DNA from: a virus
Taxonomy: Duplodnaviria > Caudoviricetes
Strand: one strand, 5' to 3'
Virus record (IMG/VR): IMGVR_UViG_3300032295_002421
Location: 14,630-78,629 of that record
DNA: 64,000 nt
The notes below the pieces were generated by a model. It saw nothing but the letters and a program-made list of their open reading frames with translations. It did not search any database and was not told the origin of the DNA. Of the stretch, positions 1,568 to 48,253 are shown piece by piece. The position numbers and the translations under genes are program-made. Each line of letters starts with the position of its first letter. Positions within the stretch are counted from its first letter, which is position 1.

Positions 1568-1568
1568 A

Positions 1569-2537
1569 ATGAATTATATAGTTGTAACGTCAATTAATGG
1601 AGTAACTGAAGCCATAAAAAAGTTTAGTAAGATAGATGATTGGAAAGTAGTTGTGGTTGGAGATTTAAAAAGCGTTACTTATCAACACGAGAATGTAAAA
1701 TTTTTAACAGTACAAGAACAACAAGACTTAGGCTTCAATATATTTAATACTACACCTTACAACCATTACTCAAGAAAAAACATTGGATATATATATTCAA
1801 TTGGTCAAGGAGCTGAATATGTATATGATACTGATGACGATACTATTCCATATAAAAACTGGGGTATAAAAGATTTTAAATGTGATAAAGCAATATTAGG
1901 AGATAAGTACATTAATCCATTTAGTTTTTTTACAGATCAAAATGTGTGGCCTAGAGGATATCATTTACCTTATATTAATAAAATACAACAATATACAAAA
2001 GAAGATGGAGATTATAATGTCGGAGTATGGCAAGGAATTATAGATGGTGATTCTGACTTTGATGCTATATATAGACTTATAATAAATAAACATATTAAGT
2101 TTAATGATCATGAAGATATTGTAATCTCTCCTAATTCATATTCTCCATTTAATACTCAAAGTACTTTATGGAATAAAAAACTTTATAGTTTAATGTATAT
2201 ACCTATAACTGTTGACTTTAGATTTACAGATATTTTAAGAGGCTACATTGCTCAAAGAATAATGTGGGATCATGGATATAGATTAGGGTTTCATTCTCCA
2301 AATACTTATCAAATTAGGAATGCTCATGACTACTATAAAGATTTTCTTGGAGAAATATCAATGTATCAAAACATTCCTAAAGTAGTTGAATTATTAGATC
2401 AAATAAAATTGCCTAATGATTCTATAGAAAAAGATTTGTTACTAATATATTCATCTTTAGAAAATAAAAATATTGTTAGTAAATTAGAAATAGAAAATTT
2501 AAATAATTGGATAAAAGATATAAATAGTTTAAAATGA
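1569..2537 (+). CDS. STELLO-like (DUF288) glycosyltransferase
   Basis: YIVVTSIN, VVVVGDLKS, PYNHYSRKNIGY, YDTDDD, WPRGY, DFDAIYRL, FRFTDILRGY motifs; start reset to ATG 1569. Confidence 0.7.
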   Translation: MNYIVVTSINGVTEAIKKFSKIDDWKVVVVGDLKSVTYQHENVKFLTVQEQQDLGFNIFNTTPYNHYSRKNIGYIYSIGQGAEYVYDTDDDTIPYKNWGIKDFKCDKAILGDKYINPFSFFTDQNVWPRGYHLPYINKIQQYTKEDGDYNVGVWQGIIDGDSDFDAIYRLIINKHIKFNDHEDIVISPNSYSPFNTQSTLWNKKLYSLMYIPITVDFRFTDILRGYIAQRIMWDHGYRLGFHSPNTYQIRNAHDYYKDFLGEISMYQNIPKVVELLDQIKLPNDSIEKDLLLIYSSLENKNIVSKLEIENLNNWIKDINSLK

Positions 2538-3490
2538 TAAAAGTAGTTTATGTAACAGGATGTTTAGGATTTATAGGATCTTATGTAACTAGGGCTTGTT
2601 TAGAAAAAGGTTGGTATGTAAGAGGCATAGATAAGTGTACTTATGCATCCAATGAAGATCTTTTATCTGAATTCACAAAAAAATATCCTGATAGATTTTC
2701 TTTTGAAAAAATAGATATTAATGACATGAAGTTTCTTTATGAGTGTGATTATATTATAAACACAGCAGCAGAAACCCATGTTGGAAATTCTATAGTAAGT
2801 AGTGATGAGTTCATACATTCTAATATAGATGGAGTTCATAATTTATTAGAGCTAATTAAAAACTATAGATTAGAATCTAATAGAAAACCTACTCTTCTGC
2901 ACTTTTCAACAGATGAAGTTTATGGAGATATAGATAAAGGTACACATACAGAAGCCGATTTATTAAAACCATCTAATCCATATTCAGCAACAAAAGCTGC
3001 AGCAGATATGTTAATACTTGCTTGGGCTAGAACATATAACCTACCCTATGTTATTGTTAGACCAACCAATAATTATGGAATTGGACAGTATGTAGAAAAG
3101 TTAATTCCTAAGTCTTGTAAAATGTTGCACTTAGGAAAAAAGATATCGTTACATAATAACGGAACTCCTATAAGAAATTGGCTTCATGCAGCAGATACTG
3201 CCAAAGCAGTAATAACAATTATAGAGTCTGGCGTTCAAAATGAAATTTATAATATAGCCGGGGGATTTGAACAATCAAATTATGACACTGTAAAGAAAGT
3301 TATAAAAGAATTTAATGGATCTGATTATATTGAAAAATATCTAGATCTATCTTATTCCAGAATAGGGCAGGACATTAGATACGCATTAGATGATTCTAAA
3401 TTAAAAAATTTAGGTTGGAAACCTACTATGAAGTTTGATGAAGAAATTTCAAAAATAATTGATTATTATAGAAATAGGTTTATATGGTAA
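2534..3490 (+). CDS. rmlB: dTDP-glucose 4,6-dehydratase
   Basis: TGCLGFIGS, AAETHV, STDEVYG, YSATK, NNYG, GQDIRYALD: classic RmlB motifs. Confidence 0.85.
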   Translation: MIKVVYVTGCLGFIGSYVTRACLEKGWYVRGIDKCTYASNEDLLSEFTKKYPDRFSFEKIDINDMKFLYECDYIINTAAETHVGNSIVSSDEFIHSNIDGVHNLLELIKNYRLESNRKPTLLHFSTDEVYGDIDKGTHTEADLLKPSNPYSATKAAADMLILAWARTYNLPYVIVRPTNNYGIGQYVEKLIPKSCKMLHLGKKISLHNNGTPIRNWLHAADTAKAVITIIESGVQNEIYNIAGGFEQSNYDTVKKVIKEFNGSDYIEKYLDLSYSRIGQDIRYALDDSKLKNLGWKPTMKFDEEISKIIDYYRNRFIW

Positions 3491-3520
3491 ATAATATTCA
3501 AATATAAATAAAATACACGT

Positions 3521-4180
3521 ATGATAACACTAGATGAATTAGCGAACAAGCATAACACAGATAAAGGAACAAAATATGGACATGTAACGGTTCATGGATA
3601 TGCTCCAATATATGAAAATTACCTATCTAAATGGAAAGATAAATCTATTAGACTTTTAGAAGTAGGAATCTGCATGGAGCATACAACAGGAGGACATTCA
3701 GTAAGAATGTGGCATGAGTATTTTAAAAATGCTTCTATCTATACTTTTGATATAGCGGATATGAAACATTTAGAAACAGAATTAGGAAATAGAGTTAAAT
3801 TTTATAAAGGAGATCAGAGTGTTAGATCAGATTTTGAAAACATGTATAAAGAATTTGGTTCTGAAAACTTTGATTTTATTTTAGAAGACGGTTCACATAT
3901 ACACCAACATCAGATAATATCATTTGGCCATTTATTTAAATACGTTAAACCTGGAGGTTATTACATATTAGAAGATGTAACTGAAGAAGGATATCCAGTT
4001 TGCTGTATAAGAAATGATGAAACATTTAAATTCATAAAAAAATTAAAAAATGAAAATATAGTTGAATCTGAATGGTTAACTAAAGAAGAATCAGAATATC
4101 TACAAAAAAATATTAAACAAATAGATATTCATGAAGATATACAAAACGCTTATAGAACTATAATCATACACAAAAAATAA
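3521..4180 (+). CDS. Sugar O-methyltransferase (MycE/TylE-like class I)
   Basis: HNTDK..HGY..IYE, LLEVGI, SVRMWHEYF, ILEDGSH, KPGGYYILED. Confidence 0.75.
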   Translation: MITLDELANKHNTDKGTKYGHVTVHGYAPIYENYLSKWKDKSIRLLEVGICMEHTTGGHSVRMWHEYFKNASIYTFDIADMKHLETELGNRVKFYKGDQSVRSDFENMYKEFGSENFDFILEDGSHIHQHQIISFGHLFKYVKPGGYYILEDVTEEGYPVCCIRNDETFKFIKKLKNENIVESEWLTKEESEYLQKNIKQIDIHEDIQNAYRTIIIHKK

Positions 4181-4183
4181 TTT

Positions 4184-4984
4184 ATGAATACTAGAGAATT
4201 TAAATGTTCAAAGATACTAACTGATCTTGTAGAGAACGACGGCCTAATAGGAATTAAGACAAGCTTTGAAGATGAAGGAGCTACATTTAATGAAACAATT
4301 AGATTAAAAGAAGTTTGCAATCAATCAAAAGTCAAACTCAATCTTAAAATAGGAGGGCCAGAAGCTATAAGAGATATGAAAGATTTATCAATTATAGGAG
4401 TGAAAGGCGTAGTTGCTCCTATGGTAGAATCAGGATTTGCATTAAAAAAGTTTGTAGACTCGATCAATAAAACCCTCCCCCAGGATATTATATCATCATT
4501 GCAACTCTTTATTAATGTAGAAACAAAACAAGCAGTGGAAAACATAGATTCTATTCTATCTATGAAAGAAGCAGATACATTGTATGCTATTACAGTAGGT
4601 AGAGTTGATTTAGTTTCTTCAATGGGAAAAGATAGATCTTATGTAAATAGTAATGAGGTTTTTGAAATGACAAAATCAGTATTTACTAAAGTAAAAGAAA
4701 AAGGATTAAAAGCTTGTCTAGGTGGAGCGGTATCTGTAGAGTCATTAGAGTTTCTTAAAAAACTAAATTCAGAAAGGTTATTAGATAAATTTGAAACTAG
4801 ATATGCAATATTTGATCCATCAATAACGCTTAAGAATTTATCTAGGGCGCTATCTAAAGCGCAGATGTTTGAATATGAATGGTTGATGGCAAAGCATGAA
4901 TATTATACTATGAATGCTAATTATGATCTCAATAGAATTAAAATGATTCAAGATAGAATTAATCAATCTATAGACTTTAAATAA
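4184..4984 (+). CDS. HpcH/HpaI aldolase / citrate-lyase-like protein
   Basis: KIGGPEAIRD, GVVAPMVES, INVET, ITVGRVDL. Confidence 0.75.
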   Translation: MNTREFKCSKILTDLVENDGLIGIKTSFEDEGATFNETIRLKEVCNQSKVKLNLKIGGPEAIRDMKDLSIIGVKGVVAPMVESGFALKKFVDSINKTLPQDIISSLQLFINVETKQAVENIDSILSMKEADTLYAITVGRVDLVSSMGKDRSYVNSNEVFEMTKSVFTKVKEKGLKACLGGAVSVESLEFLKKLNSERLLDKFETRYAIFDPSITLKNLSRALSKAQMFEYEWLMAKHEYYTMNANYDLNRIKMIQDRINQSIDFK

Positions 4985-5616
4985 TGAAAGTATTAGTTAC
5001 AGGATCATCTAAAGGAATAGGAAAAAGAATAGATACCTTATTTAGTATTAATGGCCATGATGTGTATGCTCCTAATAGAGATGAACTAGATCTATCTAAA
5101 GACTTTAATTTAAACAGAACTGACTTTGATGTTGTTATAAATAATGCAGGGATAAATCCTTTGAATACTATTAGAGACATGGACCAAGAATTGGTCATGA
5201 GAGTAAACTACTATTCTCCTTTAAAAATAATCCAGCAGTGTTTACCATATATGATAAATCAAAAGTGTGGTCATATTATAAACATAGGTTCTATATGGTC
5301 TAATATAGCAAAGGAAAAGAGAGCGGCATATTCTGCAAGTAAGTCTGCTTTAGAATCACTAGCAAGATCAATAACATCAGAATACGGAAAGTATGGTATA
5401 TTAGCAAATACAGTATCTCCTGGTTTTATTTTAACTGATCTTACAAAACAAAATAATACAGAAGATCAGATAAAAGACTTAGAGAAAAATATACCGCTTA
5501 ATAAATTAGGAACAGTTAATGATATAGCTAGTTTCGTTTATTTTTTAGCCACTCAAAATTCATACATAACAGGACAAAATATAATAATTGATGGAGGTTA
5601 TTCATGCGTAGCTTAA
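4984..5616 (+). CDS. Short-chain dehydrogenase/reductase (FabG-like)
   Basis: TGSSKGIG, NNAG, YSASK catalytic motif, VSPGFI, ITGQNIIIDGG. Confidence 0.9.
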   Translation: MKVLVTGSSKGIGKRIDTLFSINGHDVYAPNRDELDLSKDFNLNRTDFDVVINNAGINPLNTIRDMDQELVMRVNYYSPLKIIQQCLPYMINQKCGHIINIGSIWSNIAKEKRAAYSASKSALESLARSITSEYGKYGILANTVSPGFILTDLTKQNNTEDQIKDLEKNIPLNKLGTVNDIASFVYFLATQNSYITGQNIIIDGGYSCVA

Positions 5617-6632
5617 ATATAAAATCTAAGTTTGGACAGTACTCTGTTAAATTCTATAATCAAGTTTCTGATATACAAGAATTTATACAGGACGGTATTG
5701 TAATTGTGGATTCTAAAGTCTATGAATTATATAAAGATTATCTTCCTGTAGATTCTATTTTATTTGATTGCATTGAACAAAATAAAACTTTAGACGGATC
5801 TGTAACCATATTCAGAGAGTTAATAAAAAGAAAAATAAAATCTAATGGTAAAGTAATTGCTATAGGAGGAGGAATACTTCAAGATGTGGTTGGATTCGTA
5901 TGTTCAACATATTGTAGAGGAATACAATATGATCTAGTTCCGACTACTCTATTATCTCAATGTGATAGTTGTATAGGCGGCAAAACATCTATAAATTTTG
6001 AATCAGTAAAAAATATATTAGGTACATTCTATCCTCCTAATAATATATTAATATGCCCAGAATTTATTAAGACTCTTACAAATGAAGATCAATTGAGTGG
6101 AATGGGAGAGTTAATTAAATTTAACATCTTAAAAAACACAATAGGTAATATAAAAAATAATATTGATTTAATTAGTATGATATATGATGGACTTTCATAT
6201 AAAGCATCAATCATACAAATAGATGAGTTTGATAAGAAAGAAAGAAAATTTTTAAACTTTGGTCATACTTTTGGTCACGCTTTAGAATCTACTTCTGACT
6301 ATAATATTCCTCATGGAACTGCAGTTTTGTTTGGTATATTAATAGCAAATAAAGTATCTAATTTTTTAGGACTCTTAAGTTTAAATAAAGAATCAGAATT
6401 ATTTGATTTAATTTACCCATATATAAAACATCAAAAAATAGAAGAGGATTGGTTTAATTTTGACAATCTTATTTCTATTATAAAACATGACAAGAAAAAT
6501 ACAGGCACTATAAATATGGTTCTATTGACAGATAAAGATCCTAAAATAGTTCCTATAGAATCAGAAGAAAAATTACAGTTAGCACTAAAAAATATTTATG
6601 CGTCTATCAGATTATGTAATAAAATATCTTAA
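5604..6632 (+). CDS. 3-dehydroquinate synthase-like sugar-phosphate cyclase
   Basis: GGGILQD, RG..PTTLLSQCDSCIGGKT, KN..G.F.PP, LNFGHTFGHALE, HGTAV, DKK all intact. Confidence 0.85.
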   Translation: MRSLNIKSKFGQYSVKFYNQVSDIQEFIQDGIVIVDSKVYELYKDYLPVDSILFDCIEQNKTLDGSVTIFRELIKRKIKSNGKVIAIGGGILQDVVGFVCSTYCRGIQYDLVPTTLLSQCDSCIGGKTSINFESVKNILGTFYPPNNILICPEFIKTLTNEDQLSGMGELIKFNILKNTIGNIKNNIDLISMIYDGLSYKASIIQIDEFDKKERKFLNFGHTFGHALESTSDYNIPHGTAVLFGILIANKVSNFLGLLSLNKESELFDLIYPYIKHQKIEEDWFNFDNLISIIKHDKKNTGTINMVLLTDKDPKIVPIESEEKLQLALKNIYASIRLCNKIS

Positions 6633-8340
6633 AGATAATTACCAAGTAGATACAGTATTCACAGTCTCAGGTGGTGGTTGTATATTCTTAGTGGACTCCC
6701 TAACCAATATAGAGGGGGTTAATTATATAGCTACGCATCACGAACAAGCAGCAGCCATTGCAGCAGAAGGGTATTCTAGAATGCATAATAAATTAGGAGC
6801 GTGTGTAGTTACTAGTGGTCCTGGTGGAACTAATGCTATTACAGGTGTATTAGGAGCTTGGTTAGATTCTATTCCTATAATAGTGATTAGCGGTCAAGTA
6901 AATAAGGAAATGACTACTAATTACAACAATCTATATAACCTAAGACAATTAGGAGATCAAGAGTTTAATATAGTCGAGTCTGTAAAGAATATGACAAAGT
7001 ATGCAGCACAAGTCAATAATCCAGAAGATATAAAATACCATTTAGATACTGCATGTAAACTAGCAACCTCACAAAGACCAGGACCTGTATGGTTAGATAT
7101 ACCACTGAATGTCCAATCGACGAATATAAATCCAGATGAGTTAATAGGCAATGATTCAGTAGAAGATACAGAACAGGTTAAGTGTCCTGATAGTATATTA
7201 GATAAAGTTGCAGAAGAATTGAACAAGTCTAAAAAACCACTCTTAATAGTTGGTAATGGAGTTAGACTTTCAAGTGGTGTAGATCAACTTAAAAAGTTTA
7301 TTAGTAAAATAAAAATACCTGTCATATCTTCAGTAAATGGAAATGATCTGATTAATGACGATTATGAAGGATATGCTGGCAGATTTGGAACTCATGCACA
7401 AATATGTGCAAACAATCTTATATCTGAAGCAGACCTTATTTTATCTGTGGGTTCTAGATTATATGTAAGACAAACAGGTTACAATTTTAAAGGGTTTGCA
7501 GAGAATGCGTGTAAGATATATGTGGATGTAGATATTAATGAACTAAATAAACCAACGTTATATCCAGATATTGCTATACATTCAGATGCTAAGTTCTTTT
7601 TAGAACAAATGATAGATAAAGATATAAATACTATAGATAAAGAATGGTTAGATTATTGTTCTAATAAGTATAAAGAAACACCAACTGTTTTACAAAGACA
7701 TAGAAACAAGAAAGATTTTGTTAGTCACTATCATTTTGTAGAAACTTTAGGATCTCTATTAAAACCAACAGACCATGTAGTTACAAGTGACGGTACAGCA
7801 AATGTTGCGACCATGCAAGTATTAAAACTTAAAGGAGATCAGAGACTAATAACAAATACAGGAAATGCTCCTATGGGTTATGGTCTTCCTGCGGCAATTG
7901 GTGCGGCATCAACAAAAATACCTGTAGTTTGTATAGAAGGAGATGGAAGTTTACATTTAAATGTACACGAACTACAAACAGTTAAACATTATAATTTACC
8001 AATAAAGATAATTCTATTTAATAATGATGGATATACATCTATAAAGATATCACAAAAAGCTTTCTTTAATGGTAAGTTTGTAGCATCAGAAAAGAATAGC
8101 GGTGTTTCATTCCCTAATTTTAAAAAGCTTATTAATGCTTATGATCTTAAATATATGTCTATAGAAAATCATAGTTTGATGAAAGATATTTTAAAACAAT
8201 TTCTTTCTTTGGAAGGTCCTGCAGTATTAGAAGTGTTTACCGATCCTGAAGAATTCCACGAACCTAAAGTTGTTGCTAAGTTAGGATCCGATGGTAAATT
8301 TATTCCTGGTAATTTACAAGATATAAAATGGATACAATGA
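6598..8340 (+). CDS. ThDP-dependent acetolactate-synthase-like enzyme (YerE-like)
   Basis: HHEQAAAIAAEGY, TSGPGGTN, RPGPVWLDIP, MGYGLPAAIG, EGDGSL...NN ThDP motif. Confidence 0.9.
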   Translation: MRLSDYVIKYLKDNYQVDTVFTVSGGGCIFLVDSLTNIEGVNYIATHHEQAAAIAAEGYSRMHNKLGACVVTSGPGGTNAITGVLGAWLDSIPIIVISGQVNKEMTTNYNNLYNLRQLGDQEFNIVESVKNMTKYAAQVNNPEDIKYHLDTACKLATSQRPGPVWLDIPLNVQSTNINPDELIGNDSVEDTEQVKCPDSILDKVAEELNKSKKPLLIVGNGVRLSSGVDQLKKFISKIKIPVISSVNGNDLINDDYEGYAGRFGTHAQICANNLISEADLILSVGSRLYVRQTGYNFKGFAENACKIYVDVDINELNKPTLYPDIAIHSDAKFFLEQMIDKDINTIDKEWLDYCSNKYKETPTVLQRHRNKKDFVSHYHFVETLGSLLKPTDHVVTSDGTANVATMQVLKLKGDQRLITNTGNAPMGYGLPAAIGAASTKIPVVCIEGDGSLHLNVHELQTVKHYNLPIKIILFNNDGYTSIKISQKAFFNGKFVASEKNSGVSFPNFKKLINAYDLKYMSIENHSLMKDILKQFLSLEGPAVLEVFTDPEEFHEPKVVAKLGSDGKFIPGNLQDIKWIQ

Positions 8341-9116
8341 AAATATTAATAACAGGAGCTAATGGATATATAGGAAATTCTTTATATAGATCTTTAAAAG
8401 ATTTACATGAAGTTTCTACTATAACTAGAGAAAATTGTGATTTAACAGATCAAAATAGTGTTAATTTATATTTTAAAAATAAATGGTTTGATGTAGTTAT
8501 ACACTGTGCAGTATCTGGAGGTAACAGATTAAAACCAGAAAACTCTCAAGTTATAGACTCTAATCTAATGATGTACTATAATTTATTATACAATAAAAAA
8601 TGTTTTAATAAATTAATACATTTTGGATCAGGAGCTGAATTTCATAGATGGTGGACTCCATATGGTTTAAGTAAAAAATTAATAAGCTCATCAATATCTG
8701 GCCAAGATAATTTTTATAACTTAATAATATATGGATTATTTGATGAATTTGAATTAGATAGAAGATTTATTAAGTCTAATTTAAAAAGGTATATAAATAA
8801 AGAACCAATGCAAATAGATGATAATAACTATATGGATTTTTTTTATATGCAAGACTTAATACAAGTAGTAAATTATTGCATAGAAAATGAAAGTCCTCCA
8901 AAATATATAAATTGCGTTTATAAAGAAAATTTAACCTTAAAAAATATAGCCGATTTTATAAATACCTTAAATGATTATAAAGTAGACATAAAAATAAATG
9001 GATCGGAATTTCCAATTGAAGGGTATACTAGTTTTAATAAAGATTTAAAATTACCATTTGTAGGACTTCAACAAGGAATAATAAACACGTATAATAAATT
9101 AAAATGGAACCAATAA
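8337..9116 (+). CDS. NAD-dependent epimerase/dehydratase
   Basis: MKILITGANGYIG, HCA..GG, GSGAEF, YGLSK; ATGA overlap with upstream stop. Confidence 0.85.
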   Translation: MKILITGANGYIGNSLYRSLKDLHEVSTITRENCDLTDQNSVNLYFKNKWFDVVIHCAVSGGNRLKPENSQVIDSNLMMYYNLLYNKKCFNKLIHFGSGAEFHRWWTPYGLSKKLISSSISGQDNFYNLIIYGLFDEFELDRRFIKSNLKRYINKEPMQIDDNNYMDFFYMQDLIQVVNYCIENESPPKYINCVYKENLTLKNIADFINTLNDYKVDIKINGSEFPIEGYTSFNKDLKLPFVGLQQGIINTYNKLKWNQ

Positions 9117-10387
9117 GTTTTATAACAAACACAGGAGCTAACACTTTAGAATATACTAAATTACTATTAGAATCTTTAAAAATTAATTTAGTTGGTAAAG
9201 AACATGAGATTATAGTTTTTATAGATAAAGATAATGATGGAACATATCAATATCTTAAAAGTATTAAAAAAGATTTTTACGATTTAAAAATAGTAACACA
9301 TAAACTTAAAGGGCCAGTAGGATATCAAAGGAACTCCAATCTTCTTGTTGATATAGCTAAACATAATATAGTTAGTTATCTTCAAAGTGATATGGTTATA
9401 TCACCAAATTATGATATAGACATACTATCTGAAATAGAAGATGATTGTATAATAAGTTCAACTAGAGTAGAACCACCACTTCATGGTCCATCTAATGTTG
9501 TAATAATAAAAGATTTTGGCGTAGATCCTTTACAATTCAATATAGAAGATTGGAATTCATATTCTATTACTGTAAAGGAAAATAAAGTAGCTGAATACTT
9601 TTTTGCTCCATATACTTTTTATAAAAAAACATGGCAAAAGATCGGAGGCTATGATACTATATTTAGAAGATCTAGAGAGGATTCAGATTTTGTACAAAGA
9701 TGTGTTCAATCTGGAATAAAGTTAAAACAAACATTTAAACCAGTTGTTTATCATTTTACTTGTGTAAGTTCTAGAGGAAAAAATTGGTTTGATGAAAACA
9801 ATAAAGAAGCAAAAGAAAGAGTAGAATTACAAAAAATTGCAGACGGAATAGAGATAAGAAGATTCTTAAAAAAATGGGGAGGTTTTAATCATGGAGAAAG
9901 TAAGTTAAAAAAATTAGATATAGATCTTGTAGTAAAAGACAATAAACAATTAAACCCAATGTTCTTAGCTCAATTAGAAGTTTATTGTTCTAGAGTATGG
10001 TTGAAATCAAAAGAAGAGGTGGATGTTTTAATTCAAATCCTAAGTAACGAACAAGATCCAGCTAATACACTTTTAGGATATACTAATGAAGGTTGGGAAG
10101 AAGCTAAACACTTATTTAGAACTACAGACTTTAAGTCTATTTATAGAGTTGGACAACCTGTAGATTTTAATATAAAAATAGAAGTAAACTTTGAAAATAT
10201 AGATCCATCTAAAGATGAATTCATACAAAATATAACGCGTTTAAGTGACATTCTGGAAGGTTCTGAACCTGGAATATATGAACTAGGATCCGCCAAAATA
10301 GAGATCAGAAATATGGTAGATTTAACCCAGGAGCAAATTATAGTTAATAATCCAAAATTTGATTTTTCACTTTTAAATATAGAATAA
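9104..10387 (+). CDS. GT2-family glycosyltransferase
   Basis: HEIIVFIDKDNDGT, LQSDM, GGYD.IF...REDSDF, VYHF. Confidence 0.8.
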   Translation: MEPISFITNTGANTLEYTKLLLESLKINLVGKEHEIIVFIDKDNDGTYQYLKSIKKDFYDLKIVTHKLKGPVGYQRNSNLLVDIAKHNIVSYLQSDMVISPNYDIDILSEIEDDCIISSTRVEPPLHGPSNVVIIKDFGVDPLQFNIEDWNSYSITVKENKVAEYFFAPYTFYKKTWQKIGGYDTIFRRSREDSDFVQRCVQSGIKLKQTFKPVVYHFTCVSSRGKNWFDENNKEAKERVELQKIADGIEIRRFLKKWGGFNHGESKLKKLDIDLVVKDNKQLNPMFLAQLEVYCSRVWLKSKEEVDVLIQILSNEQDPANTLLGYTNEGWEEAKHLFRTTDFKSIYRVGQPVDFNIKIEVNFENIDPSKDEFIQNITRLSDILEGSEPGIYELGSAKIEIRNMVDLTQEQIIVNNPKFDFSLLNIE

Positions 10388-10989
10388 TGACAGCAAAATA
10401 TTCAGTAGATTGGTTTAGTAATAATATTCCTATATGGGATCAGATATTTACGGAATTTAAGATTAAAGGTTCTGATAATTTAAGATTTTTAGAAATAGGA
10501 TGTTTTGAAGGTAGATCAACAAATTATTTACTAGATAATATTTTAACAGGAAATAATTGTACTATAGACGTAATTGATACATTTGGAGGATCTATTAATG
10601 AAGCGGGTATGAATTTTGATGTATCTTTTAATTTTAGTACTTTATATGAAACATTTGTTAAAAATACAGAACCTCATAAAGAAAAAATCAATATTCATGT
10701 TGGATATTCTGGAGATGTTTTAAGAAAATCTTTCAAGAAAAATTATTTTGATTTTATATACATAGATGGATCTCATACAGCCCCGGATGTATTACAAGAT
10801 GCTGTGCTTTGTCATGATTTATTAAAGTCAAAAGGTATTTTAATATTCGATGATTTTGGATGGAAAGATCCTAGTAATCTTGATCCAACAAATAGTCCGG
10901 AATTAGCAATTGCTTGTTTTTTAAATTGTCATAATAATAACTATGGTATGATAACCCAAGGGTATCAAATAGCAGTTATGAAAAAATAA
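10387..10989 (+). CDS. Class I SAM-dependent methyltransferase (Methyltransf_24-like)
   Basis: FLEIGCFEGRS; FDFIYIDGSH; GILIFDDF. Confidence 0.85.
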   Translation: MTAKYSVDWFSNNIPIWDQIFTEFKIKGSDNLRFLEIGCFEGRSTNYLLDNILTGNNCTIDVIDTFGGSINEAGMNFDVSFNFSTLYETFVKNTEPHKEKINIHVGYSGDVLRKSFKKNYFDFIYIDGSHTAPDVLQDAVLCHDLLKSKGILIFDDFGWKDPSNLDPTNSPELAIACFLNCHNNNYGMITQGYQIAVMKK

Positions 10990-34211: not shown

Positions 34212-34240
34212 AGCCCTCGGCAAGTGCCAGGGCTTTTTTT
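34212..34240 (+). terminator. Rho-independent terminator at convergence of + and - operons
   Basis: AGCCCT-c-GGC-aagt-GCC-AGGGCT followed by T-run. Confidence 0.8.
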
Positions 34241-34694
34241 ATTCTACATCCTTTCTATAGAACCTACCTTGGATATTATCGTTATATGAATCTATATGAA
34301 GAACTTTGTAGTGCATTTGCCACCAAACTTCGTAATAAGTCAATTGTTTCTTAGAGTAACATAATTGTAAGATCTCTCTAGCAAACATGTCGTCTCCTAT
34401 TTCTTTTCTTTCTTGATTAAGAAGCTTATTACTTCCATGGTATGATAACCAATCGGACTCTTTAACTATCTTCCTCTTGCGTGGGACGCGCCCAGGTTTG
34501 TCCCATTCCGCGATCTCCTTTTTGGTTAATGCTTTATTGGTATTATTGAAAAGAACCTTTCTACCTATATAGAATTTGCCATTAACTAGATTGACAATCT
34601 TATATATAAAGCCAACAGTATTGGATGGAAAGTCTTCTATTGAATTAAACTCTCTAGTAACTCCTAGAGGATCAAAATATAACCATTTTCTCAT
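34239..34694 (-). CDS. GIY-YIG (Seg-like) domain protein
   Basis: GFIYKIVNLVNGKFYIGRK; YHGS; YNDNI. Confidence 0.75.
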   Translation of the reverse strand: MRKWLYFDPLGVTREFNSIEDFPSNTVGFIYKIVNLVNGKFYIGRKVLFNNTNKALTKKEIAEWDKPGRVPRKRKIVKESDWLSYHGSNKLLNQERKEIGDDMFAREILQLCYSKKQLTYYEVWWQMHYKVLHIDSYNDNIQGRFYRKDVE

Positions 34695-34704
34695 ACTTTA
34701 TTTT

Positions 34705-35094
34705 TTAGCTATCCCACCTTACAATAAAAGTCATATCTGTATTTGGTGGTATTGGATATGGTCTAGACAATTTTCCTACTACTAATAATTCATCTTGATC
34801 ATTATATAATCCTATTGTAGTTACATAAGGATGAAAATCTGAACCTGTTATTGCATCTATATATGAACCTGAAGTTCCTGCTTTTGTAGCACTAAGATTT
34901 TGTGTATAATTAAAATCATTTTCTTTTACTTTACACCTAACTTCATTCTGATATATAGTTATTTCTGATTGCAAAGACATTGTAAATGGGGAATACGAAA
35001 TGAGCTCAGTATCTGTAATAAGATAGTTATTTTCATCTTCTGTTATAAGAAATAATGAATCTTCTGCCGTTAAAAAAGTAACTACTGCTGACAT
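34705..35094 (-). CDS. Baseplate/tail structural protein, C-terminal half of a split gene
   Basis: YVTTIGLYNDQDELLVVGKLSRP aligns to the C-terminus of 38759..39790; own ATATTTAT at 35099-35106. Confidence 0.7.
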   Translation of the reverse strand: MSAVVTFLTAEDSLFLITEDENNYLITDTELISYSPFTMSLQSEITIYQNEVRCKVKENDFNYTQNLSATKAGTSGSYIDAITGSDFHPYVTTIGLYNDQDELLVVGKLSRPYPIPPNTDMTFIVRWDS

Positions 35095-35096
35095 AC

Positions 35097-35708
35097 CTAT
35101 AAATATTCAGATTTTATTTCTTCCCACAAAAATTTTGTTACCTCTTTATTATAGTTATCTTGATAAAAATATGGTCCATTTTTTGGAGTTAAATAAACCC
35201 TTTCTTTACTTTCCATAGTTATTGCTATATCACAAAACTGATTAGTTGATAAAGAATCTATTAAAAATTTCATCATTAATTTTGCTGATTTAATATTAGG
35301 TATTAAACAAGGAGTTAATGATAGCATATAGTAAACTCTGTAAAAATCATTATTAAAATCTTTTATCTCCATATTTGGTTTTATCCCTCCACAATTATAT
35401 AAACTACCTCCTAAAAAAATAAAATCACATTCATCTGGTATATTAATACTTTCTGGTAGCGGTCTTATTAATTCCATATCATCATCTATTGATATAAAAG
35501 GAAATTTATTTTTTTCTATTGCATCACATATTAATTTTATTTGTCCAAAAGAAATTCTATCTTGTCTTAGATCTAGTTTTATGTCATTAGATATTCTATA
35601 ATACTCTAAATTTAAATTATTAAATAAGGCTTCTATTTTATTTCTTCTATCCGTATATCCTTCATAATTTAAGTAATAAAATGGTATATCAATTAATTTT
35701 ACATCCAT
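35097..35708 (-). CDS. GT25-like glycosyltransferase
   Basis: PFYYLNY...DRR..IE..F; SIDDD DxD motif. Confidence 0.5.
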   Translation of the reverse strand: MDVKLIDIPFYYLNYEGYTDRRNKIEALFNNLNLEYYRISNDIKLDLRQDRISFGQIKLICDAIEKNKFPFISIDDDMELIRPLPESINIPDECDFIFLGGSLYNCGGIKPNMEIKDFNNDFYRVYYMLSLTPCLIPNIKSAKLMMKFLIDSLSTNQFCDIAITMESKERVYLTPKNGPYFYQDNYNKEVTKFLWEEIKSEYL

Positions 35709-36454
35709 AGTATAGTATTATTAGATATATTAAATATTTGGTTTTTATTTTCTAATAAAACTTTTTTATGATTTTCTATATCTAGTAAAGGATTTCTAGT
35801 TTCTCCTAACCCTCCCTTATCGCTTATATCAAACATAAAGTTTTCACATTTAACAGTATGAGGAGGATTAAAATGAAAATAAGCATTTATATAACTTTCA
35901 TCATTTACACCGGGTTCGTATGGTATTTTTTTATCTTCTATTTGCCAATCTCTTAACGTTTTACAAAAATTTATAACCACATCTTTTTTTCCGCCAAAAA
36001 AAGCTCCGTAATGGTATGTGTAAGGAAGTGGACTGTCTTCTGGTACATATGCCTTAGAGTCTTTAAATCTATCAAACCCCTTTCCTCCAGATAAAAAAGA
36101 TCTATTTCCATAATGCTCTCCGCCTACAAGATCTCCTAAAAACCAATTTTCCGTAAAATCTTTAGATACATTAGTATCTGCATCAAAATAATATAAATAA
36201 TCGCAATCTATTTCCTCTAATAAAATAATATTTTTAAATTTTGAATTTGTTCCATCAACCCAATTACTATGCATTTCTTGATAAAACTTTACATTTATTT
36301 CAGATGGTAGATATGGTTTAGGATCTGTATCAGAAAAAAAGTAAAATTCTATATTTAAATTACCTTTATAATGATGAATAAATTTTTTTATAAATCTAAT
36401 TCCAAGTAAAAAATAAGCATTAGTAGCTATTAAAACTATTCCTATTTTTTTCAT
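35699..36454 (-). CDS. GT6-family (ABO / alpha-1,3-Gal(NAc) transferase-like) glycosyltransferase
   Basis: IGIVLIAT..Y; YFFSD; YFDAD; YHYGAFFGG; NDESYINAYF. Confidence 0.8.
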   Translation of the reverse strand: MKKIGIVLIATNAYFLLGIRFIKKFIHHYKGNLNIEFYFFSDTDPKPYLPSEINVKFYQEMHSNWVDGTNSKFKNIILLEEIDCDYLYYFDADTNVSKDFTENWFLGDLVGGEHYGNRSFLSGGKGFDRFKDSKAYVPEDSPLPYTYHYGAFFGGKKDVVINFCKTLRDWQIEDKKIPYEPGVNDESYINAYFHFNPPHTVKCENFMFDISDKGGLGETRNPLLDIENHKKVLLENKNQIFNISNNTILWM

Positions 36455-37407
36455 ATTAAAGGAGATTTTTTTTCTACTTCTTGTATTTCTTGATAGTATT
36501 TATAACTTGCTGTTCCTTCTTTTATTCTAAGATTTAAATTATATGGTACAAAATCTCTATATTGAGCTTTGTAAAATTTACCTCCGCAGGAACAAGTAAC
36601 TCCAGCATTATGAAATATATTAGTTTCATTAAATCTTTCTTCTGTATCTGTACCCCAACAAAAATCTAATTCTTTTATTACTTTAGTTTCTTGACCATTT
36701 AACCAACCATTCCATAGTACTGCCCACATATCTGCACACCATATTTGGAGTTCATGATATGATTCGTTTTCTTGTTTTTTTAAATTATTTAATTGTGTAA
36801 TTTGAAAATATAATTCTTCACAATCTTTTTCTACTTTTTCCCAAAATGTATAATCAATATTTTTAAGAATATATTGAGCACCACCTGAATTAGAATTCAT
36901 TAATTTAGGAATAACTGGATCCATTCCGATTATTTCACACATTTTTAAATAAACATCTTCACCTTTACCTTTTATATAATTATAATTTATGTAACTATTA
37001 GTATCACTTAAATACCAAATATTATCATTTACAAATTTATTCCAATCAACTGGTTTTGTAAAAATAATATCGCAATCATGATAAAATATAGCTTCATTAA
37101 AAAGTTCTGGGTGTTCTTTAAAATGTTGTTTTAATATATTTGGTCTTATTGAAGAAATATATTTTATTGGATGTTTTCTAGTGTCTGGATAAAAGAAAAA
37201 TCTTACTGTATCGTAATAGGTTGTTAGTTTATCCCATATTTCAATTACTTCTGGATTACTAGTTTCATCATTAGGATTACAAGCAATAAGAATATCAATA
37301 TTATTTGGATTTATACCATTTTTAATAAAGTTATTTATCATAACTTCTACTTGCCAAGCATAATAAATAAGTCTTGGTTGAACACAAATGTAACGTAAAT
37401 TTTTCAT
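36451..37407 (-). CDS. HPAT/SERGT-like (GT95/GT96-like) protein O-glycosyltransferase
   Basis: YYAWQVEV...Y...IRP...HF...HDCDI...GGAQYI...WCADMWA pattern resembles peptide O-glycosyltransferase domains. Confidence 0.5.
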   Translation of the reverse strand: MKNLRYICVQPRLIYYAWQVEVMINNFIKNGINPNNIDILIACNPNDETSNPEVIEIWDKLTTYYDTVRFFFYPDTRKHPIKYISSIRPNILKQHFKEHPELFNEAIFYHDCDIIFTKPVDWNKFVNDNIWYLSDTNSYINYNYIKGKGEDVYLKMCEIIGMDPVIPKLMNSNSGGAQYILKNIDYTFWEKVEKDCEELYFQITQLNNLKKQENESYHELQIWCADMWAVLWNGWLNGQETKVIKELDFCWGTDTEERFNETNIFHNAGVTCSCGGKFYKAQYRDFVPYNLNLRIKEGTASYKYYQEIQEVEKKSPLI

Positions 37408-37436
37408 AACAATTTTATTTTTATTTTTTATTTATT

Positions 37437-38735
37437 TTAACATGGTACAGATGATACCGAAATTCCAGGACCAGGACCATAAGAGAAAGTATTATCTCTT
37501 ACACACGGCGTATTTACAGAACTAAATGTATTAACACTACCACCTGTTGAATTATTATTTTCACACAAATTACCAGTCCAAGACGTACCTGTACCTTGAG
37601 TTTCTATTGTATAAACTGAACATGTAGGTACTTCTGTAGTTGTTGTTGTTGTTGTGCTAGTAGTTGTCGTAGTAGTGGTTGTCGTAGTAGTAGTTGTTGT
37701 AGTAGTCGTAGTTTCAGATGCAGAAGCACTTACATAATAAGATTTACCTGAAGCTGCTGTAAATGTATAAGAATTTACTGTTGCAGGTATTGATCCAGGG
37801 GTTGATATATTATTATGTAAAACTGTAGAATCAGTTAGATTTTCTATATATAATCTATAAGAACCCAATGTACCACCTTGACTATTTTGTTGTGAATATA
37901 TAGAACTTCCTGCAGAAGCTATAAAACTATTATTTTCTGTGGAGAACGATGATACTACATTTGTACCATCATCATTTATTAATAAGTCAGAATCTACATA
38001 AGGACTAGCTAATTCTGTATTTGCCCAAAATATAGTAGCTGGTACTTCTGTTGTAGTAGTAGTCGTTGTACTAGTTGTTGTTGTAGTCGGCGCTGCTGTA
38101 GTTGTTGTAGTTGTGGTACTAGTTGTTGTTGTACTAGTTGTTGTTGTAGTCGGCGCCGCCGTAGTTGTTGTAGTCGTTGTACTAGTTGTAGTTGTGGTCG
38201 TAGTAGAATCTATTATAGCGTTTCTATAATCTAAATTAGTTATTACAACTATACCTTGATTATATAAAATATTTCCTACATGTATATTAAGATTATCTGT
38301 ATCTATAATATTTCCATTACCATCATCTATAATATTATAAGTTAATCCTGTTAAATTAAAACTCTTTCTACTTATATTTTCTCCAAATACAGTTCTTGGT
38401 ATAGATATAACAGTTATTTCATCGCTAGATGATATTGGAAAATATCTAAAATCATTATCAAAAGTACCTTCTGCTGCTGTTGATTGAAGATTATCATTCC
38501 ATGCACTAGCTGAATTATCTAAATTTCCTGTAATATAAGAATTATAATATAATTGTTGTGCTAGTTTGTATACAAGAAATTCAGTTTTGTTTACATTAAA
38601 AGATCCATTAATTCCTCTATTAACAGTTATTCCACTATTAATAACAGAAGAACTAAAGTAAGATGCAGAGTATTTTAACTTTATAGGATAAGTAGAAATA
38701 TCTGACCTATCAAGAGTATTTTTTGATGATCCCAT
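37437..38735 (-). CDS. Baseplate/tail protein N-terminal half fused to mucin-like Thr-rich repeats, a beta-rich module and a Cys-containing tip
   Basis: VISIPR..FGE and VGNILYNQGIVVIT align with 38759..39790; two poly-Thr tracts each ending EVP. Confidence 0.75.
   Translation of the reverse strand: MGSSKNTLDRSDISTYPIKLKYSASYFSSSVINSGITVNRGINGSFNVNKTEFLVYKLAQQLYYNSYITGNLDNSASAWNDNLQSTAAEGTFDNDFRYFPISSSDEITVISIPRTVFGENISRKSFNLTGLTYNIIDDGNGNIIDTDNLNIHVGNILYNQGIVVITNLDYRNAIIDSTTTTTTTSTTTTTTTAAPTTTTTSTTTTSTTTTTTTAAPTTTTTSTTTTTTTEVPATIFWANTELASPYVDSDLLINDDGTNVVSSFSTENNSFIASAGSSIYSQQNSQGGTLGSYRLYIENLTDSTVLHNNISTPGSIPATVNSYTFTAASGKSYYVSASASETTTTTTTTTTTTTTTTTTSTTTTTTTEVPTCSVYTIETQGTGTSWTGNLCENNNSTGGSVNTFSSVNTPCVRDNTFSYGPGPGISVSSVPC
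37635..37712 (-). repeat. Poly-Thr coding repeat (second tract)
   Basis: ACN codon run. Confidence 0.9.
38049..38204 (-). repeat. Thr/Ser/Ala-Ala-Pro mucin-like coding repeat (first tract)
   Basis: Two TTTTTAAPTTTTTS units within a poly-Thr run. Confidence 0.9.
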
Positions 38736-38758: not shown

Positions 38759-39790
38759 CTACCAATCTAATTTAACTCTAATAAGAGCTTCTTTAGTAAA
38801 ATCTTTAGTTAGTGGCTTAGACATTTTAGCCACAGCTAACAATTCATTATTATCATTATATAATCCTACTGATGTTGGAAATGTTTGAGGACTATTAATA
38901 AAATTAGAATATATTAAATCACCAGATCCTGTAAAAAATGATGGATTAGTAGTATAATTATAATCTGAATTTTTAACTCTAACAAATAGATAGTTTGAAG
39001 AAATTGTTTCCTGAGAATTTAATTGGAAAAAAGATCCACTATTAATTGTTCTAAAAATTAGATTATTATTAAAACTAGCTGCATTTGAAGTAACCGCTGT
39101 AGAAAAAGAAGTTCCAATACCACCGTCTCCTGATGCTAAAGAAAGCGCTCTTGGATTTAAAAGTATCAATCCGATATCAGGTAAAAATAATCCATAACTA
39201 CCAGAAACTGTATATCCCTTAGTAGCTCCTGTTAATGTAGGACTATTTCTTGCGGTACCATTAGATCCTGATACTATATTATAAACTCTTCCGCCGTCTA
39301 AATACGATATGATATTTATATCATTAGAATTGTCTGTTAATTTTATAGGTCCACTACCTGCGTTTGCAAGATATAAATTAAAAGTACCAGGAAATAAACT
39401 CTCTTTATATTTATTTCTATCAATTTGAATAGCAATTAAATCATCAGAGTCTACGTTTCCAGTTCCAAAATTAATTGAACTTTCAGCGTCTCCGTAAATT
39501 AAATTTCTAAATTGTCCAAAAGTAATTCTAGTAGGACTATTACCTGTAACTATTGGATTTAATGGAGCAGATCCTGATCCTGCATAATGTCCATAAGCAA
39601 CAGAAAATTGAATAGAAGCTGATGGGGAAACAATAGATCCATCATAAACATCTACATAATAACTTCCTGTAGAACTAGCTGATGCTGTAAAAAAATTAGT
39701 AAGAATAGTTACATTATTACTCCATGCCGGTGCTGTTACCGAGTCAGATGATATGACAAAATCTGATGCTTCTAATCTTGTAAATGACAT
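38759..39790 (-). CDS. Baseplate/tail structural protein
   Basis: SVGLYNDNNELLAVAK resembles the tail-collar (DUF3751-type) C-terminal motif; lies in structural operon. Confidence 0.6.
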   Translation of the reverse strand: MSFTRLEASDFVISSDSVTAPAWSNNVTILTNFFTASASSTGSYYVDVYDGSIVSPSASIQFSVAYGHYAGSGSAPLNPIVTGNSPTRITFGQFRNLIYGDAESSINFGTGNVDSDDLIAIQIDRNKYKESLFPGTFNLYLANAGSGPIKLTDNSNDINIISYLDGGRVYNIVSGSNGTARNSPTLTGATKGYTVSGSYGLFLPDIGLILLNPRALSLASGDGGIGTSFSTAVTSNAASFNNNLIFRTINSGSFFQLNSQETISSNYLFVRVKNSDYNYTTNPSFFTGSGDLIYSNFINSPQTFPTSVGLYNDNNELLAVAKMSKPLTKDFTKEALIRVKLDW

Positions 39791-45980: not shown

Positions 45981-47837
45981 TTACATTGTTACTACACGAC
46001 CTTGAATATCTGTATTAGGATATTTTACTTCAAATATAGAAGGATCTAAAGACGGATAAAGAACTCCGTTTAAAGTTCCTGCAGATATATCATATGAGTA
46101 TCTGGAATATCCGCTAGTTAAACCAGATTTATTAACTATATTAACTTTTTTAACTGTTTGAACTCCTTCAACAATTTCTAATATAGAATAAATGTCTCCT
46201 AATATTATAGGTTGATTTATTTGCCAATTGTTAATATTAAAAAAGTCTTGTAATACTGTTATACATCTAGCTAATACATCTTGACTAGTATAATTAGGTC
46301 TAATTATAATATCAAAATCACAACCAATATTAATTATATATGCAGGTTTTATATTAACTGCATCTGTCATCATTCTATAATCTGATAAATATGTTTGTAA
46401 ATTTTCAAGCATAGCAGGAGAAGGGTTTTCTAAGTTGTTATTAGAATTTAATCCTAAAACATAAAGACTAACTAAAACTTGATCTTTTTGACCTATATCT
46501 CCTCTCATGTAATTATTAAAAGTAGCATCGTCTTTAGTTACATATGCCTTAGAAATTTTACCATATCTAGGATCCATACTAAGAGTTCTTGCTAAATAAT
46601 CTTCTTGAGTTACAGCTCTATATTGTGTTGGAAATTCTGCTAATATATTTAATTTTAATTCATTAACAGTATCTCCATCGCCACCACCAGAAGCAGGATC
46701 TATATTATTAACTGCTAAGGTATTTTGATATGTAGTATTACCAGCGGAAGAAAAAGATGATATTTCAGTTAACTGATTAGATAGTACATTTGATCTTGCG
46801 CCTCCTCCAACTAAATATTGAAATGTTATAGTAGTATTTTTAGGAGCCAATCCATAAGTTTGTGTTGTAACAAAATTAGTAGGATCAAATGAGCTAGATA
46901 AAGTACTAAGTCCACCACCAGATAAACCAACACTTACATTATTAGGATTAGGTAAAACAGCAGTATCTGCTACTGAATTTATTCCTGGTCCAAATTCTAT
47001 TTCTAAAGTTCCTTCTGATGTAAATCTAGAAACAAATCTTCTAGAAACATACATTTTTTGAAGCATATAAGGAACTTGATTCTGGTATTGATATAATGAT
47101 GGATAATTTGCCGCTGTATTTTCTACTGGTTTTAATATATAATCTTGGGCTAAATAAGGTACTTCATACCATGTGTTTCCATCGCTATCTTTGGCATCTA
47201 AAATAGTTATTATTGAACTATCAGAAATTGATACAGTAGAAAATCTTTGAGGTGCTCCAAAAGCAAAATTTGCTGTTTTTAATTGGCCAGATAATGCTTG
47301 TCTAGTTTTTTTAAGAATATAAGAAGTAGGAATATTAGAACTATCTATTGTATATACATCTATAGTAGTTGGATCCATAGAAGATGACATAGAAAAATCT
47401 ATTTTATCAGGGATATAAAAAGAAACACTAGAATCTACATTAGATCTAATTTGCATTCCTTGTCTTACTGTAAATGCATAAGAAAAATCTGGAATGGTTT
47501 CTGTTCCTATATTAATTGATGGTATTTGTTGATATATTTCTACATTTGCTATTGCCGCAGAGCTTATTTTAGGTCTATACCCTAACATATAAGCTAAAGT
47601 ATATAAATTATTTTTTTGTTTTGCATATTGTAAAAAGCTCTCTTGTATTTGATTATCTAAATAAAAAGATAATACGTCTCCAACATAAGCCGCCATATCA
47701 ATAAACATAGATCCTGGACTGGCTTGTGTAAAATCGTTATATACTGTAGGGTAATACGCCCTAGCATACTCTATAAGATCTGTTTTAAATGTATTAAAAT
47801 CTTTATTTATATATGATATATCAGTTTGAGTAGCCAT
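45981..47837 (-). CDS. Baseplate wedge subunit (T4 gp6 / baseplate J-like)
   Basis: KDFNTFK.DL..Y; FIDMAAYVGDVLSFYLD.Q; A.MLGY.P; YLVGGG..SN; RAVT.EDY. Confidence 0.85.
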   Translation of the reverse strand: MATQTDISYINKDFNTFKTDLIEYARAYYPTVYNDFTQASPGSMFIDMAAYVGDVLSFYLDNQIQESFLQYAKQKNNLYTLAYMLGYRPKISSAAIANVEIYQQIPSINIGTETIPDFSYAFTVRQGMQIRSNVDSSVSFYIPDKIDFSMSSSMDPTTIDVYTIDSSNIPTSYILKKTRQALSGQLKTANFAFGAPQRFSTVSISDSSIITILDAKDSDGNTWYEVPYLAQDYILKPVENTAANYPSLYQYQNQVPYMLQKMYVSRRFVSRFTSEGTLEIEFGPGINSVADTAVLPNPNNVSVGLSGGGLSTLSSSFDPTNFVTTQTYGLAPKNTTITFQYLVGGGARSNVLSNQLTEISSFSSAGNTTYQNTLAVNNIDPASGGGDGDTVNELKLNILAEFPTQYRAVTQEDYLARTLSMDPRYGKISKAYVTKDDATFNNYMRGDIGQKDQVLVSLYVLGLNSNNNLENPSPAMLENLQTYLSDYRMMTDAVNIKPAYIINIGCDFDIIIRPNYTSQDVLARCITVLQDFFNINNWQINQPIILGDIYSILEIVEGVQTVKKVNIVNKSGLTSGYSRYSYDISAGTLNGVLYPSLDPSIFEVKYPNTDIQGRVVTM

Positions 47838-47839
47838 TT

Positions 47840-48253
47840 TTACATATTTTCAATAGTTAGAATAACAGAATCATTTTCATTTGATGTAAGCAGTCTATAA
47901 CTAAATTTTATATTTATAGTACTATAATTTGGATTAGGTATTATACTTAATTGAGTTATTTCAATTTGGGGAAACTTTAATTCCATTTGAGTTCTTATAG
48001 ACTGTTCAATCTCTTCAAGAGTAATTTGATCTATTTGTTCAAATAATCTAGCCCTAAGACCAGCACCAAAAGTAGGATTAAAAACCCTTTCCCCAGGATC
48101 TGTTAAAAGATAATTTATAATATTATATTTTAATTGATCTTTTGTGGTATATACAGATGAAAATACATTATCAGCAGCAAAAGGTATTTTTACACCAATT
48201 GCTGTTGATGGTTTTAAATCTAGTGGTGATATTTGTTTTACTCCGTAGGCCAT
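47840..48253 (-). CDS. Baseplate protein, T4 gp25-like
   Basis: NIINYLLTDPGERVFNPTFGAGL...LFEQ. Confidence 0.9.
   Translation of the reverse strand: MAYGVKQISPLDLKPSTAIGVKIPFAADNVFSSVYTTKDQLKYNIINYLLTDPGERVFNPTFGAGLRARLFEQIDQITLEEIEQSIRTQMELKFPQIEITQLSIIPNPNYSTINIKFSYRLLTSNENDSVILTIENM

Follow-up and report, generated by a model that had tools for sequence, protein, structure and literature searches.

The window analysed here is the whole stretch of 64,000 nucleotides (nt) taken from positions 14,630 to 78,629 of the IMG/VR virus record IMGVR_UViG_3300032295_002421 (Duplodnaviria; Caudoviricetes), and the locus under study is a run of genes at positions 35,097 to 38,735 of this window, in which a mucin-like protein with threonine (Thr) tracts is followed by three glycosyltransferases (GTs). 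The following open reading frames (ORFs) were found there, given in transcription order with their lengths in amino acids (aa):

37437..38735, minus strand: Thr-tract protein, presumed acceptor, 432 aa (ORF, tract count)
36451..37407, minus strand: family X enzyme (phrog_4417), presumed initiating Thr O-glycosyltransferase, 318 aa (PHROG match, AlphaFold2 (AF2) fold)
35699..36454, minus strand: GT6-family glycosyltransferase, presumed elongating enzyme of the alpha-1,3-Gal(NAc) type, 251 aa (Pfam PF03414, PDB)
35097..35708, minus strand: GT25-like GT-A glycosyltransferase, presumed elongating enzyme of the beta type, 203 aa (AF2 fold, phrog_24091)

These four genes proved to be as tightly coupled as an earlier sequence-only reading had described them: a gap of 29 nt separates the Thr-tract gene from X, the X and GT6 genes overlap by 4 nt, the GT6 and 203-aa genes overlap by 10 nt, and 2 nt lie between the 203-aa gene and the next ORF. 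The proposal of the same reading that a mucin-like protein and three glycosyltransferases stand together in a baseplate/tail-fibre module was likewise supported. The locus is interpreted here, with a probability of roughly 0.7, as a cassette for the O-glycosylation of a virion protein, the glycan itself being predicted from genes, folds and comparison.

The presumed acceptor was divided along its length as follows:

38211-38735 (aa 1-175), minus strand: N-terminal anchoring domain, assigned by homology to gp105 of Flavobacterium phage vB_FspM_immuto (hereafter immuto)
38043-38210 (aa 176-231), minus strand: poly-Thr tract 1, 56 residues
37722-38042 (aa 232-338), minus strand: middle domain, about 107 residues
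37629-37721 (aa 339-369), minus strand: poly-Thr tract 2, 31 residues, ending in EVP
37440-37628 (aa 370-432), minus strand: C-terminal domain with four Cys, 63 residues

The two poly-Thr tracts that had been noticed in this protein were thus confirmed, and no other ORF with comparable Thr tracts was found in the whole window, the 432-aa protein being the sole carrier. Tract 1 is built of a 21-aa unit ending in AAP, which at the DNA level corresponds to a 63-nt repeat present 2.3 times and written with mixed Thr codons; this mixture suggests that the tracts were shaped by selection for Thr rather than by slippage. The middle and C-terminal domains gave no family match in a Pfam search. The middle domain, which is not conserved among relatives, resembled Ig-like and prealbumin-like beta-sandwiches (SpaA, Cna_B, fn3 and Big_7; TM 0.56-0.68) in a low-confidence Atlas model only.

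The first enzyme of the cassette, X, belongs to phrog_4417, a family of unknown function (PHROG match, 1e-61), and Pfam and NCBIfam searches with it returned no match. Its AF2 model (pLDDT 97) displays a GT-A fold, whose best matches were glycogenin (Z 15.4), LgtC (14.6), the Skp1 alpha-galactosyltransferase (Skp1 alpha-GalT; 14.4), UGGT (14) and the pneumococcal GlyE (13.5), with glycogenin superposing on 226 residues at a root-mean-square deviation (rmsd) of 3.3 A. In this model, the fold is nearest to those of retaining GT8/GT24 enzymes: the match to glycogenin, LgtC, the Skp1 enzyme and UGGT extends over the whole length (Z 14-15.4, rmsd 3.3-4.0 A, about 225-247 residues), and X shares their DXD in the form of an HDxD motif (D111, D113), with D113 present in every sequence and D111 in at least 90% of them. 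The two differ in that identity is only 6-12% and X, with 318 aa against about 260, has extra helices; nor was GT8 membership recovered by sequence, as there was no Pfam GT8 match and no PDB match with either a single sequence or a 50-sequence profile. Matches to TALE repeats and to MoaB, which came up when X and the 203-aa protein were compared with PDB sequences, were judged spurious. No signal peptide or membrane segment was detected in X, the GT6 enzyme or the 203-aa enzyme, whose N-termini coincide with the first beta-strand of the fold, and the modification would therefore be cytoplasmic, preceding assembly.

The sequence-only reading had labelled X as HPAT/SERGT-like, and this label did not find confirmation, because the Pfam HPAT model (PF23452) gave no match to X at E <= 0.1. 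The same model reached one of 50 relatives of X, at E 0.23, leaving X and the other 49 without a hit, and it had no match at E <= 10 in five genomes of X-carrying phages. HPAT or SERGT entries did not turn up among the fold and sequence matches of X in the PDB, in which no solved HPAT or SERGT structure exists. The lone hint in favour of HPAT was that the Pfam model marks 10% of the members of an Atlas cluster neighbouring X, and a very distant relationship may exist. HPAT (GT95) and SERGT1 (GT96), which are enzymes of plants and algae, are alike to X in the activity proposed here, which is the attachment of the first sugar to hydroxy-amino acids of repetitive structural proteins; both are membrane proteins of the Golgi.

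Family X is large: clustering at 90% identity yields 3807 groups and clustering at 50% yields 868. It was found in 77 isolated phages, and its members are publicly annotated as 'hypothetical' or 'prophage pi2 protein 34'. A full-text literature search retrieved no paper on the family or on poly-Thr tags of phage proteins. Across well over a hundred clusters, the sequences remain 66-84% identical, with invariant catalytic residues and open, full-length frames. Elsewhere, X was observed fused to GT6, GT2, GT32-like, GT7C, radical-SAM/SPASM or methyltransferase domains, and in 57 non-redundant loci the genes that follow it code mainly for glycosyltransferases and methyltransferases, the one directly after X being most often a GT2 (7), a GT32-like enzyme (6), a GT6 (5) or a radical SAM/SPASM enzyme (4), followed by methyltransferases. 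Moreover, in several phages of Gram-positive bacteria X lies directly between structural genes, no second transferase adjoining it. A constant X accompanied by variable partners fits a system of one initiating enzyme and variable tailoring enzymes. In some X loci (L048:3447-6001 and two others), 2-oxoglutarate (2OG)-Fe(II) oxygenases and SPASM radical-SAM enzymes adjoin X, which hints that some variants carry out further reactions on protein or sugar, hydroxylation being one candidate.

X was connected with Thr-rich proteins by its genomic association with poly-Thr, examined in both directions. In a sample of 80 IMG/VR loci harboring X, in which frames were classed by their position relative to X, poly-Thr was present in 52 of the 77 frames placed directly upstream on the same strand, in none of the 74 directly downstream and in 18 of 453 other frames (odds ratio 50, p 2e-37, a value that overstates independence since the loci are mutually related). 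In the reverse direction, 118 viral loci were picked solely for ten consecutive Thr codons; eight of them carried X, and in all eight X was located directly downstream of the poly-Thr ORF, on the same strand. Similarly, all 21 runs of eight Thr codons in a 176-kb relative genome fell in the gene just upstream of X, and in the Enterococcus phage VPE25 such runs were confined to the C-terminus of the tail-tube protein and to the gene just upstream of X, whereas the genome of immuto contains neither X nor any run of eight Thr codons.

The association recurs in phages of quite different hosts. The X-carrying phages phiFL1A, PLE3, VPE25, 1706, SA2 and Iacchus, which infect Enterococcus, Lactobacillus, Lactococcus and Staphylococcus, bear poly-Thr tails on the capsid protein, the tail-tube protein or both, or else have a small poly-Thr ORF immediately preceding X; phiCTP1 also carries X and shows no such tail or ORF. 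In the Chryseobacterium phage MA9V-3, two poly-Thr/Ser proteins directly precede X. Another run of eight Thr codons occurs in this genome (L001, PV245944.1) at 93987-94009, about 30 kb away from the X gene. In VPE25 and SA2 (L085:3725-3883; L088:3649-3930), the poly-Thr is found in a short frame that overlaps the capsid or tail-tube gene at its end or comes after it, and such frames may be extensions produced by programmed frameshifting instead of separate genes.

Comparison of orthologous proteins revealed that the tails come and go with X. The tail-tube orthologues of phiFL1A (50-60% identical) in the X-negative phages Javan47 and 315.6 of Streptococcus, cIP1 of Pediococcus and phiJL-1 of Lactobacillus stop a little beyond the shared core and lack a Thr tail, while that of the Lacticaseibacillus phage R3.3 ends in TTTTTT; a later search found X in R3.3 (E 1e-92), the sole carrier among the five. 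Taken as a check on the claim that X is tied to poly-Thr virion proteins in unrelated phages, this co-occurrence supports it and fits an initiating peptide O-glycosyltransferase.

The two remaining enzymes of the cassette were characterized by sequence and by fold, respectively. The assignment of the 251-aa protein to GT6 was borne out by its Pfam score (PF03414, 39.8 bits against a cut-off of 25, E 3e-10) and by its PDB sequence matches to BoGT6a (7e-12, residues 3-202) and to alpha3GalT (1e-7). Its D-A-D aligns with the D-V-D (DXD) of alpha3GalT, where the metal-independent Bacteroides enzyme BoGT6a has N-A-N, and its D-E-S aligns with the catalytic E317 of alpha3GalT and E192 of BoGT6a (D-Q-S in the chains of the E192Q mutant). 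The triplet that governs donor specificity reads Y-G-A in the phage enzyme, H-A-A in alpha3GalT and A-G-G in BoGT6a. A third-position Ala in this triplet goes with Gal donors in the human A/B enzymes, and by this analogy the phage enzyme is predicted to lean to a Gal donor.

For the 203-aa protein, the label GT25-like held at the level of fold and not at that of family sequence, where no match was obtained in Pfam (E <= 0.1), in NCBIfam or in the PDB, even with a 28-sequence profile; the protein matches phrog_24091, of unknown function, at 4e-9. Its AF2 model (pLDDT 87) was matched best by the human collagen galactosyltransferase COLGALT1, via the GT25 (C-terminal) domain (Z 16.6, rmsd 2.6 A, 173 residues), followed by a bacterial beta-1,4-galactosyltransferase (beta-1,4-GalT; Z 14.5), Mimivirus R655 (13.8) and PBCV-1 A64R (12.3); the COLGALT1 and beta-1,4-GalT matches stand above the other GT-A folds listed, at Z <= 13.2. 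It has a DDD motif at residues 75-77, of which D76 and D77 are invariant. All three enzymes of the cassette are thus GT-A glycosyltransferases with their metal-binding and catalytic motifs intact.

The cassette belongs to a late block on the minus strand, at its downstream end. In this block, baseplate wedge genes (45981-48253) are followed by genes for proteins of 1345, 218 and 343 aa, the 432-aa Thr-tract protein, the three enzymes, a 129-aa ORF and a SegE-like GIY-YIG endonuclease. The baseplate wedge protein encoded at 45981-47837 on the minus strand is 46% identical to its counterpart in immuto, a 160-kb myovirus; a GenBank search for a phage nearly identical to the window found none. The G+C content is 27-35% across the whole window. 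The features that flank the cassette are:

34239..34694, minus strand: SegE-like GIY-YIG homing endonuclease, directly after the C-terminal piece of the split gene (Pfam PF19835, 6.6e-26)
34705..35094, minus strand: 129-aa ORF, the C-terminal domain of a split baseplate-module gene at the far end of the insertion (alignment to immuto gp105)
38759..39790, minus strand: 343-aa protein of the structural module, paralogous to the split gene via its C-terminal domain (47% identical to an immuto protein)

The comparison with immuto revealed how the cassette is placed. Residues 62-234 of its gp105 (357 aa; L004:26018-27091) align with residues 54-167 of the 432-aa protein, and residues 241-356 align with residues 31-128 of the 129-aa ORF (40% identity, E 3e-25), which means that one gene of immuto corresponds to two ORFs in the window. 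The baseplate-module gene is therefore intact in a phage that has neither X nor poly-Thr, and the approximately 3.3 kb between its two halves in the window are taken up by the three enzymes and by the Thr stalks with their domains. The neighbouring 343-aa protein ends in the same C-terminal domain as the split gene. The split and the following SegE-like endonuclease are kept in relatives, at the same position in the related loci L005 and L020, and the cargo varies within the clade of the window, consisting of X alone, X with a radical-SAM enzyme, X with GT6, or X with GT6 and the 203-aa enzyme. In L005 (5446-8306), a radical-SAM/SPASM enzyme takes the place of the GT6 and GT25-like enzymes, and in L020 (5446-7287) X is the sole enzyme between the halves.

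The analysis established which genes are present, how their products fold, that the catalytic motifs are kept, that a split gene holds the insertion and that X is linked to poly-Thr virion proteins across phages. From this we infer that Thr is the acceptor, which enzyme starts, in what order the others extend the glycan, what the sugars are and how the phage benefits. The acceptor would be a protein of the baseplate/tail-fibre region held in the particle by its conserved N-terminal domain, its extension alternating two poly-Thr stalks with two small globular domains. Late in infection, in the host cytoplasm, X, as a soluble retaining-type GT-A transferase with a DXD motif and a member of a large unnamed phage family, would add the first, alpha-linked sugar to the Thr hydroxyls of the stalks. 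The GT25-like enzyme, probably beta-linking (beta-Gal type), and then the GT6 enzyme, of alpha-1,3-Gal type and probably using UDP-Gal, would extend this glycan, the latter adding an alpha-1,3 cap, and would leave the protein with a mucin-like stalk that is stiff, hydrophilic and resistant to proteases. A blood-group-like end to the glycan and any biological role given to it are speculation.

Several observations weigh against this interpretation, besides the relatedness of the loci in the forward test. About 90% of the poly-Thr ORFs in viral contigs of the 118-locus set had no X in the stretch examined, and it follows that poly-Thr does not need X. About a dozen loci have X among non-structural genes and no poly-Thr within 6 kb; in such loci, the acceptors of X may lie elsewhere in the genome. 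In L005 and L020, an intact X is kept between the gene halves, and the protein with the N-terminal domain stops at 176 residues and has no poly-Thr. The 432-aa protein is a predicted component of the particle, placed there by synteny, and the glycosylation of particles by X is likewise a prediction, drawn in this study from genes, folds and comparison. Moreover, the division of labour among the enzymes may differ from the one proposed, because COLGALT1, the GT25 protein that provided the best fold match of the 203-aa enzyme, itself initiates on protein.

Part of these observations would also be expected if the three transferases acted off the virion, on host envelope polysaccharide, lipid-linked glycans or phage DNA, and the poly-Thr tracts were ordinary flexible linkers, left without sugars and carried on one mobile cassette with the enzymes. 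The X loci without poly-Thr nearby, L005 and L020 included, and the majority of poly-Thr ORFs that lack X agree with such a scheme, as does a sugar-modifying gene cluster at 1-10989 of the window, which implies that the phage makes glycans for some purpose. We consider it unlikely, since X is found within the head and tail blocks of small temperate siphophages, directly after a poly-Thr protein, the poly-Thr tails of orthologous tail-tube proteins come and go with X, genome-wide poly-Thr runs are restricted to X-adjacent or major virion genes, and signal peptides and membrane segments are absent from all the enzymes.

Somewhat less probable still is that X modifies virion proteins at residues other than Thr, such as hydroxylated Pro or Lys within or beside the tracts, or that it is not the first to act, the GT25-like enzyme initiating in the manner of COLGALT1 and X extending the chain. 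The tracts are punctuated by AAP, EVP and VKP, oxygenases or SPASM radical-SAM enzymes adjoin X in some loci, COLGALT1, which the 203-aa enzyme matches best in fold, starts glycosylation on protein, and HPAT marks a tenth of the Atlas cluster near X, all of which would accord with this arrangement. Nevertheless, the cassette itself contains no oxygenase, X is the sole enzyme in the minimal arrangements (L020, phiFL1A, PLE3, 1706 and SA2), the GT25-like gene was present in just 2 of the 80 X loci, and several tails, such as those of 1706 and SA2, are pure Thr, with no Pro or Lys. A view of the cassette as selfish or decaying cargo, lodged at a recombination hot spot in the split gene and of no current use to the particle, is highly improbable, for although its content differs among close relatives and a homing endonuclease adjoins it, the strong conservation of X over more than 100 clusters (66-84% identity, invariant catalytic residues, full-length frames, 3807 homologues), the motifs kept in all three enzymes and the mixed Thr codons, which point to selection for Thr, speak against it.

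A virion-protein O-glycosylation cassette of the kind favoured here would have precedents. Glycosylation of the virions of mycobacteriophages (Che8 gp108-110, Corndog and Myrna; Freeman et al. 2023, Cell Host Microbe 31:1216, as related in PMC12363180 and PMC12619734) is, as far as these accounts extend, the only phage particle glycosylation shown experimentally. In those phages it is reported to alter recognition by antibodies. In these phages as portrayed there, and in the X phages as proposed here, the virus encodes the enzymes that glycosylate its own particle proteins in the cytoplasm, and the C-termini of capsid and tail-tube proteins are tagged, as is predicted for the X phages of Gram-positive bacteria. 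The enzymes are unrelated, however: profile searches (hmmsearch) between Che8 gp108-110 and X or the 203-aa enzyme did not exceed 1.3 bits, and BLASTP gave nothing below E 0.6. The C-termini of the Che8 capsid and tail-tube proteins lack poly-Thr, unlike those of several X phages of Gram-positive bacteria, and the acceptor in the window would be an internal stalk of a baseplate/fibre-region protein instead of a C-terminus, as judged here from its genes. The hosts of X phages also differ from those of the mycobacteriophage system, belonging to Bacteroidota and Bacillota.

The closest mechanistic analogues, by comparison, would be the glycosylation of serine-rich-repeat adhesins in Gram-positive bacteria and that of giant-virus particles. 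In the former (GtfA/B, Gtf3, GlyD and GlyE), as in the proposed cassette, soluble cytoplasmic enzymes O-glycosylate long repeats of hydroxy-amino acids sequentially, and GlyE, a GT8 enzyme, is among the structural neighbours of X, as given above. The adhesin system employs a GT-B pair, GtfA/B, as its initiator, acts on Ser-rich repeats and exports its products by the accessory Sec system. Giant viruses (PBCV-1 A64R, Mimivirus R655 and R699) likewise bring their own GT-A enzymes for particle proteins, and the 203-aa enzyme resembles R655 and A64R in fold while having no relationship to them in sequence; these systems differ in their eukaryotic hosts and in their acceptors, which are capsid Asn and fibril proteins.

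It can be proposed further that X is a new family of peptide O-glycosyltransferases, a phage counterpart of the initiators of mucin and extensin glycosylation that reads poly-Thr as a portable tag, by means of which thousands of phages, with hosts in Bacillota, Bacteroidota and other groups, would coat their capsids, tail tubes and fibres, the window presenting a stalk with an alpha-Gal-type cap added by GT6; for this broader proposition we regard the balance as even. Phage-encoded glycosylation of particles is known, and what would be new, were the interpretation of the cassette correct, is the enzyme family and its acceptor tag. If the pairing of X with poly-Thr operates in the manner proposed, particle glycosylation would be widespread, including in well-studied phages of Enterococcus, Lactococcus, Lactobacillus and Staphylococcus, with relevance to phage therapy (immunogenicity and clearance), to the biology of dairy phages and to phage ecology. 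It would also offer biotechnology a short, genetically encoded tag and one soluble enzyme for cytoplasmic O-glycosylation, and the hypothesis is open to direct test in phages that are already in culture.

The description of the system as self-contained was not sustained, the cassette having no sugar-nucleotide genes. On the plus strand, positions 1-10989 of the window hold a large cluster for making and modifying sugars, which comprises two GT2 enzymes, a STELLO-like transferase, three Methyltransf_24 proteins, an HpcH-type aldolase, a short-chain dehydrogenase/reductase (SDR), a dTDP-glucose 4,6-dehydratase-like enzyme, an acetolactate-synthase-like thiamine pyrophosphate (TPP) enzyme, an epimerase/reductase and an AroB-related sugar-phosphate cyclase (TIGR04425, 341 bits). 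A supply of GDP-fucose for a blood-group-like glycan was considered within the window and rejected as unsupported, as the dehydratase at 2534-3490 is nearest to dTDP-glucose 4,6-dehydratase (296 bits, against only 55 bits for Gmd) and the candidate fucose synthase at 8328-9116 scored 46 bits against a cut-off of 500. The cluster may feed unusual, branched or methylated sugars to the cassette.

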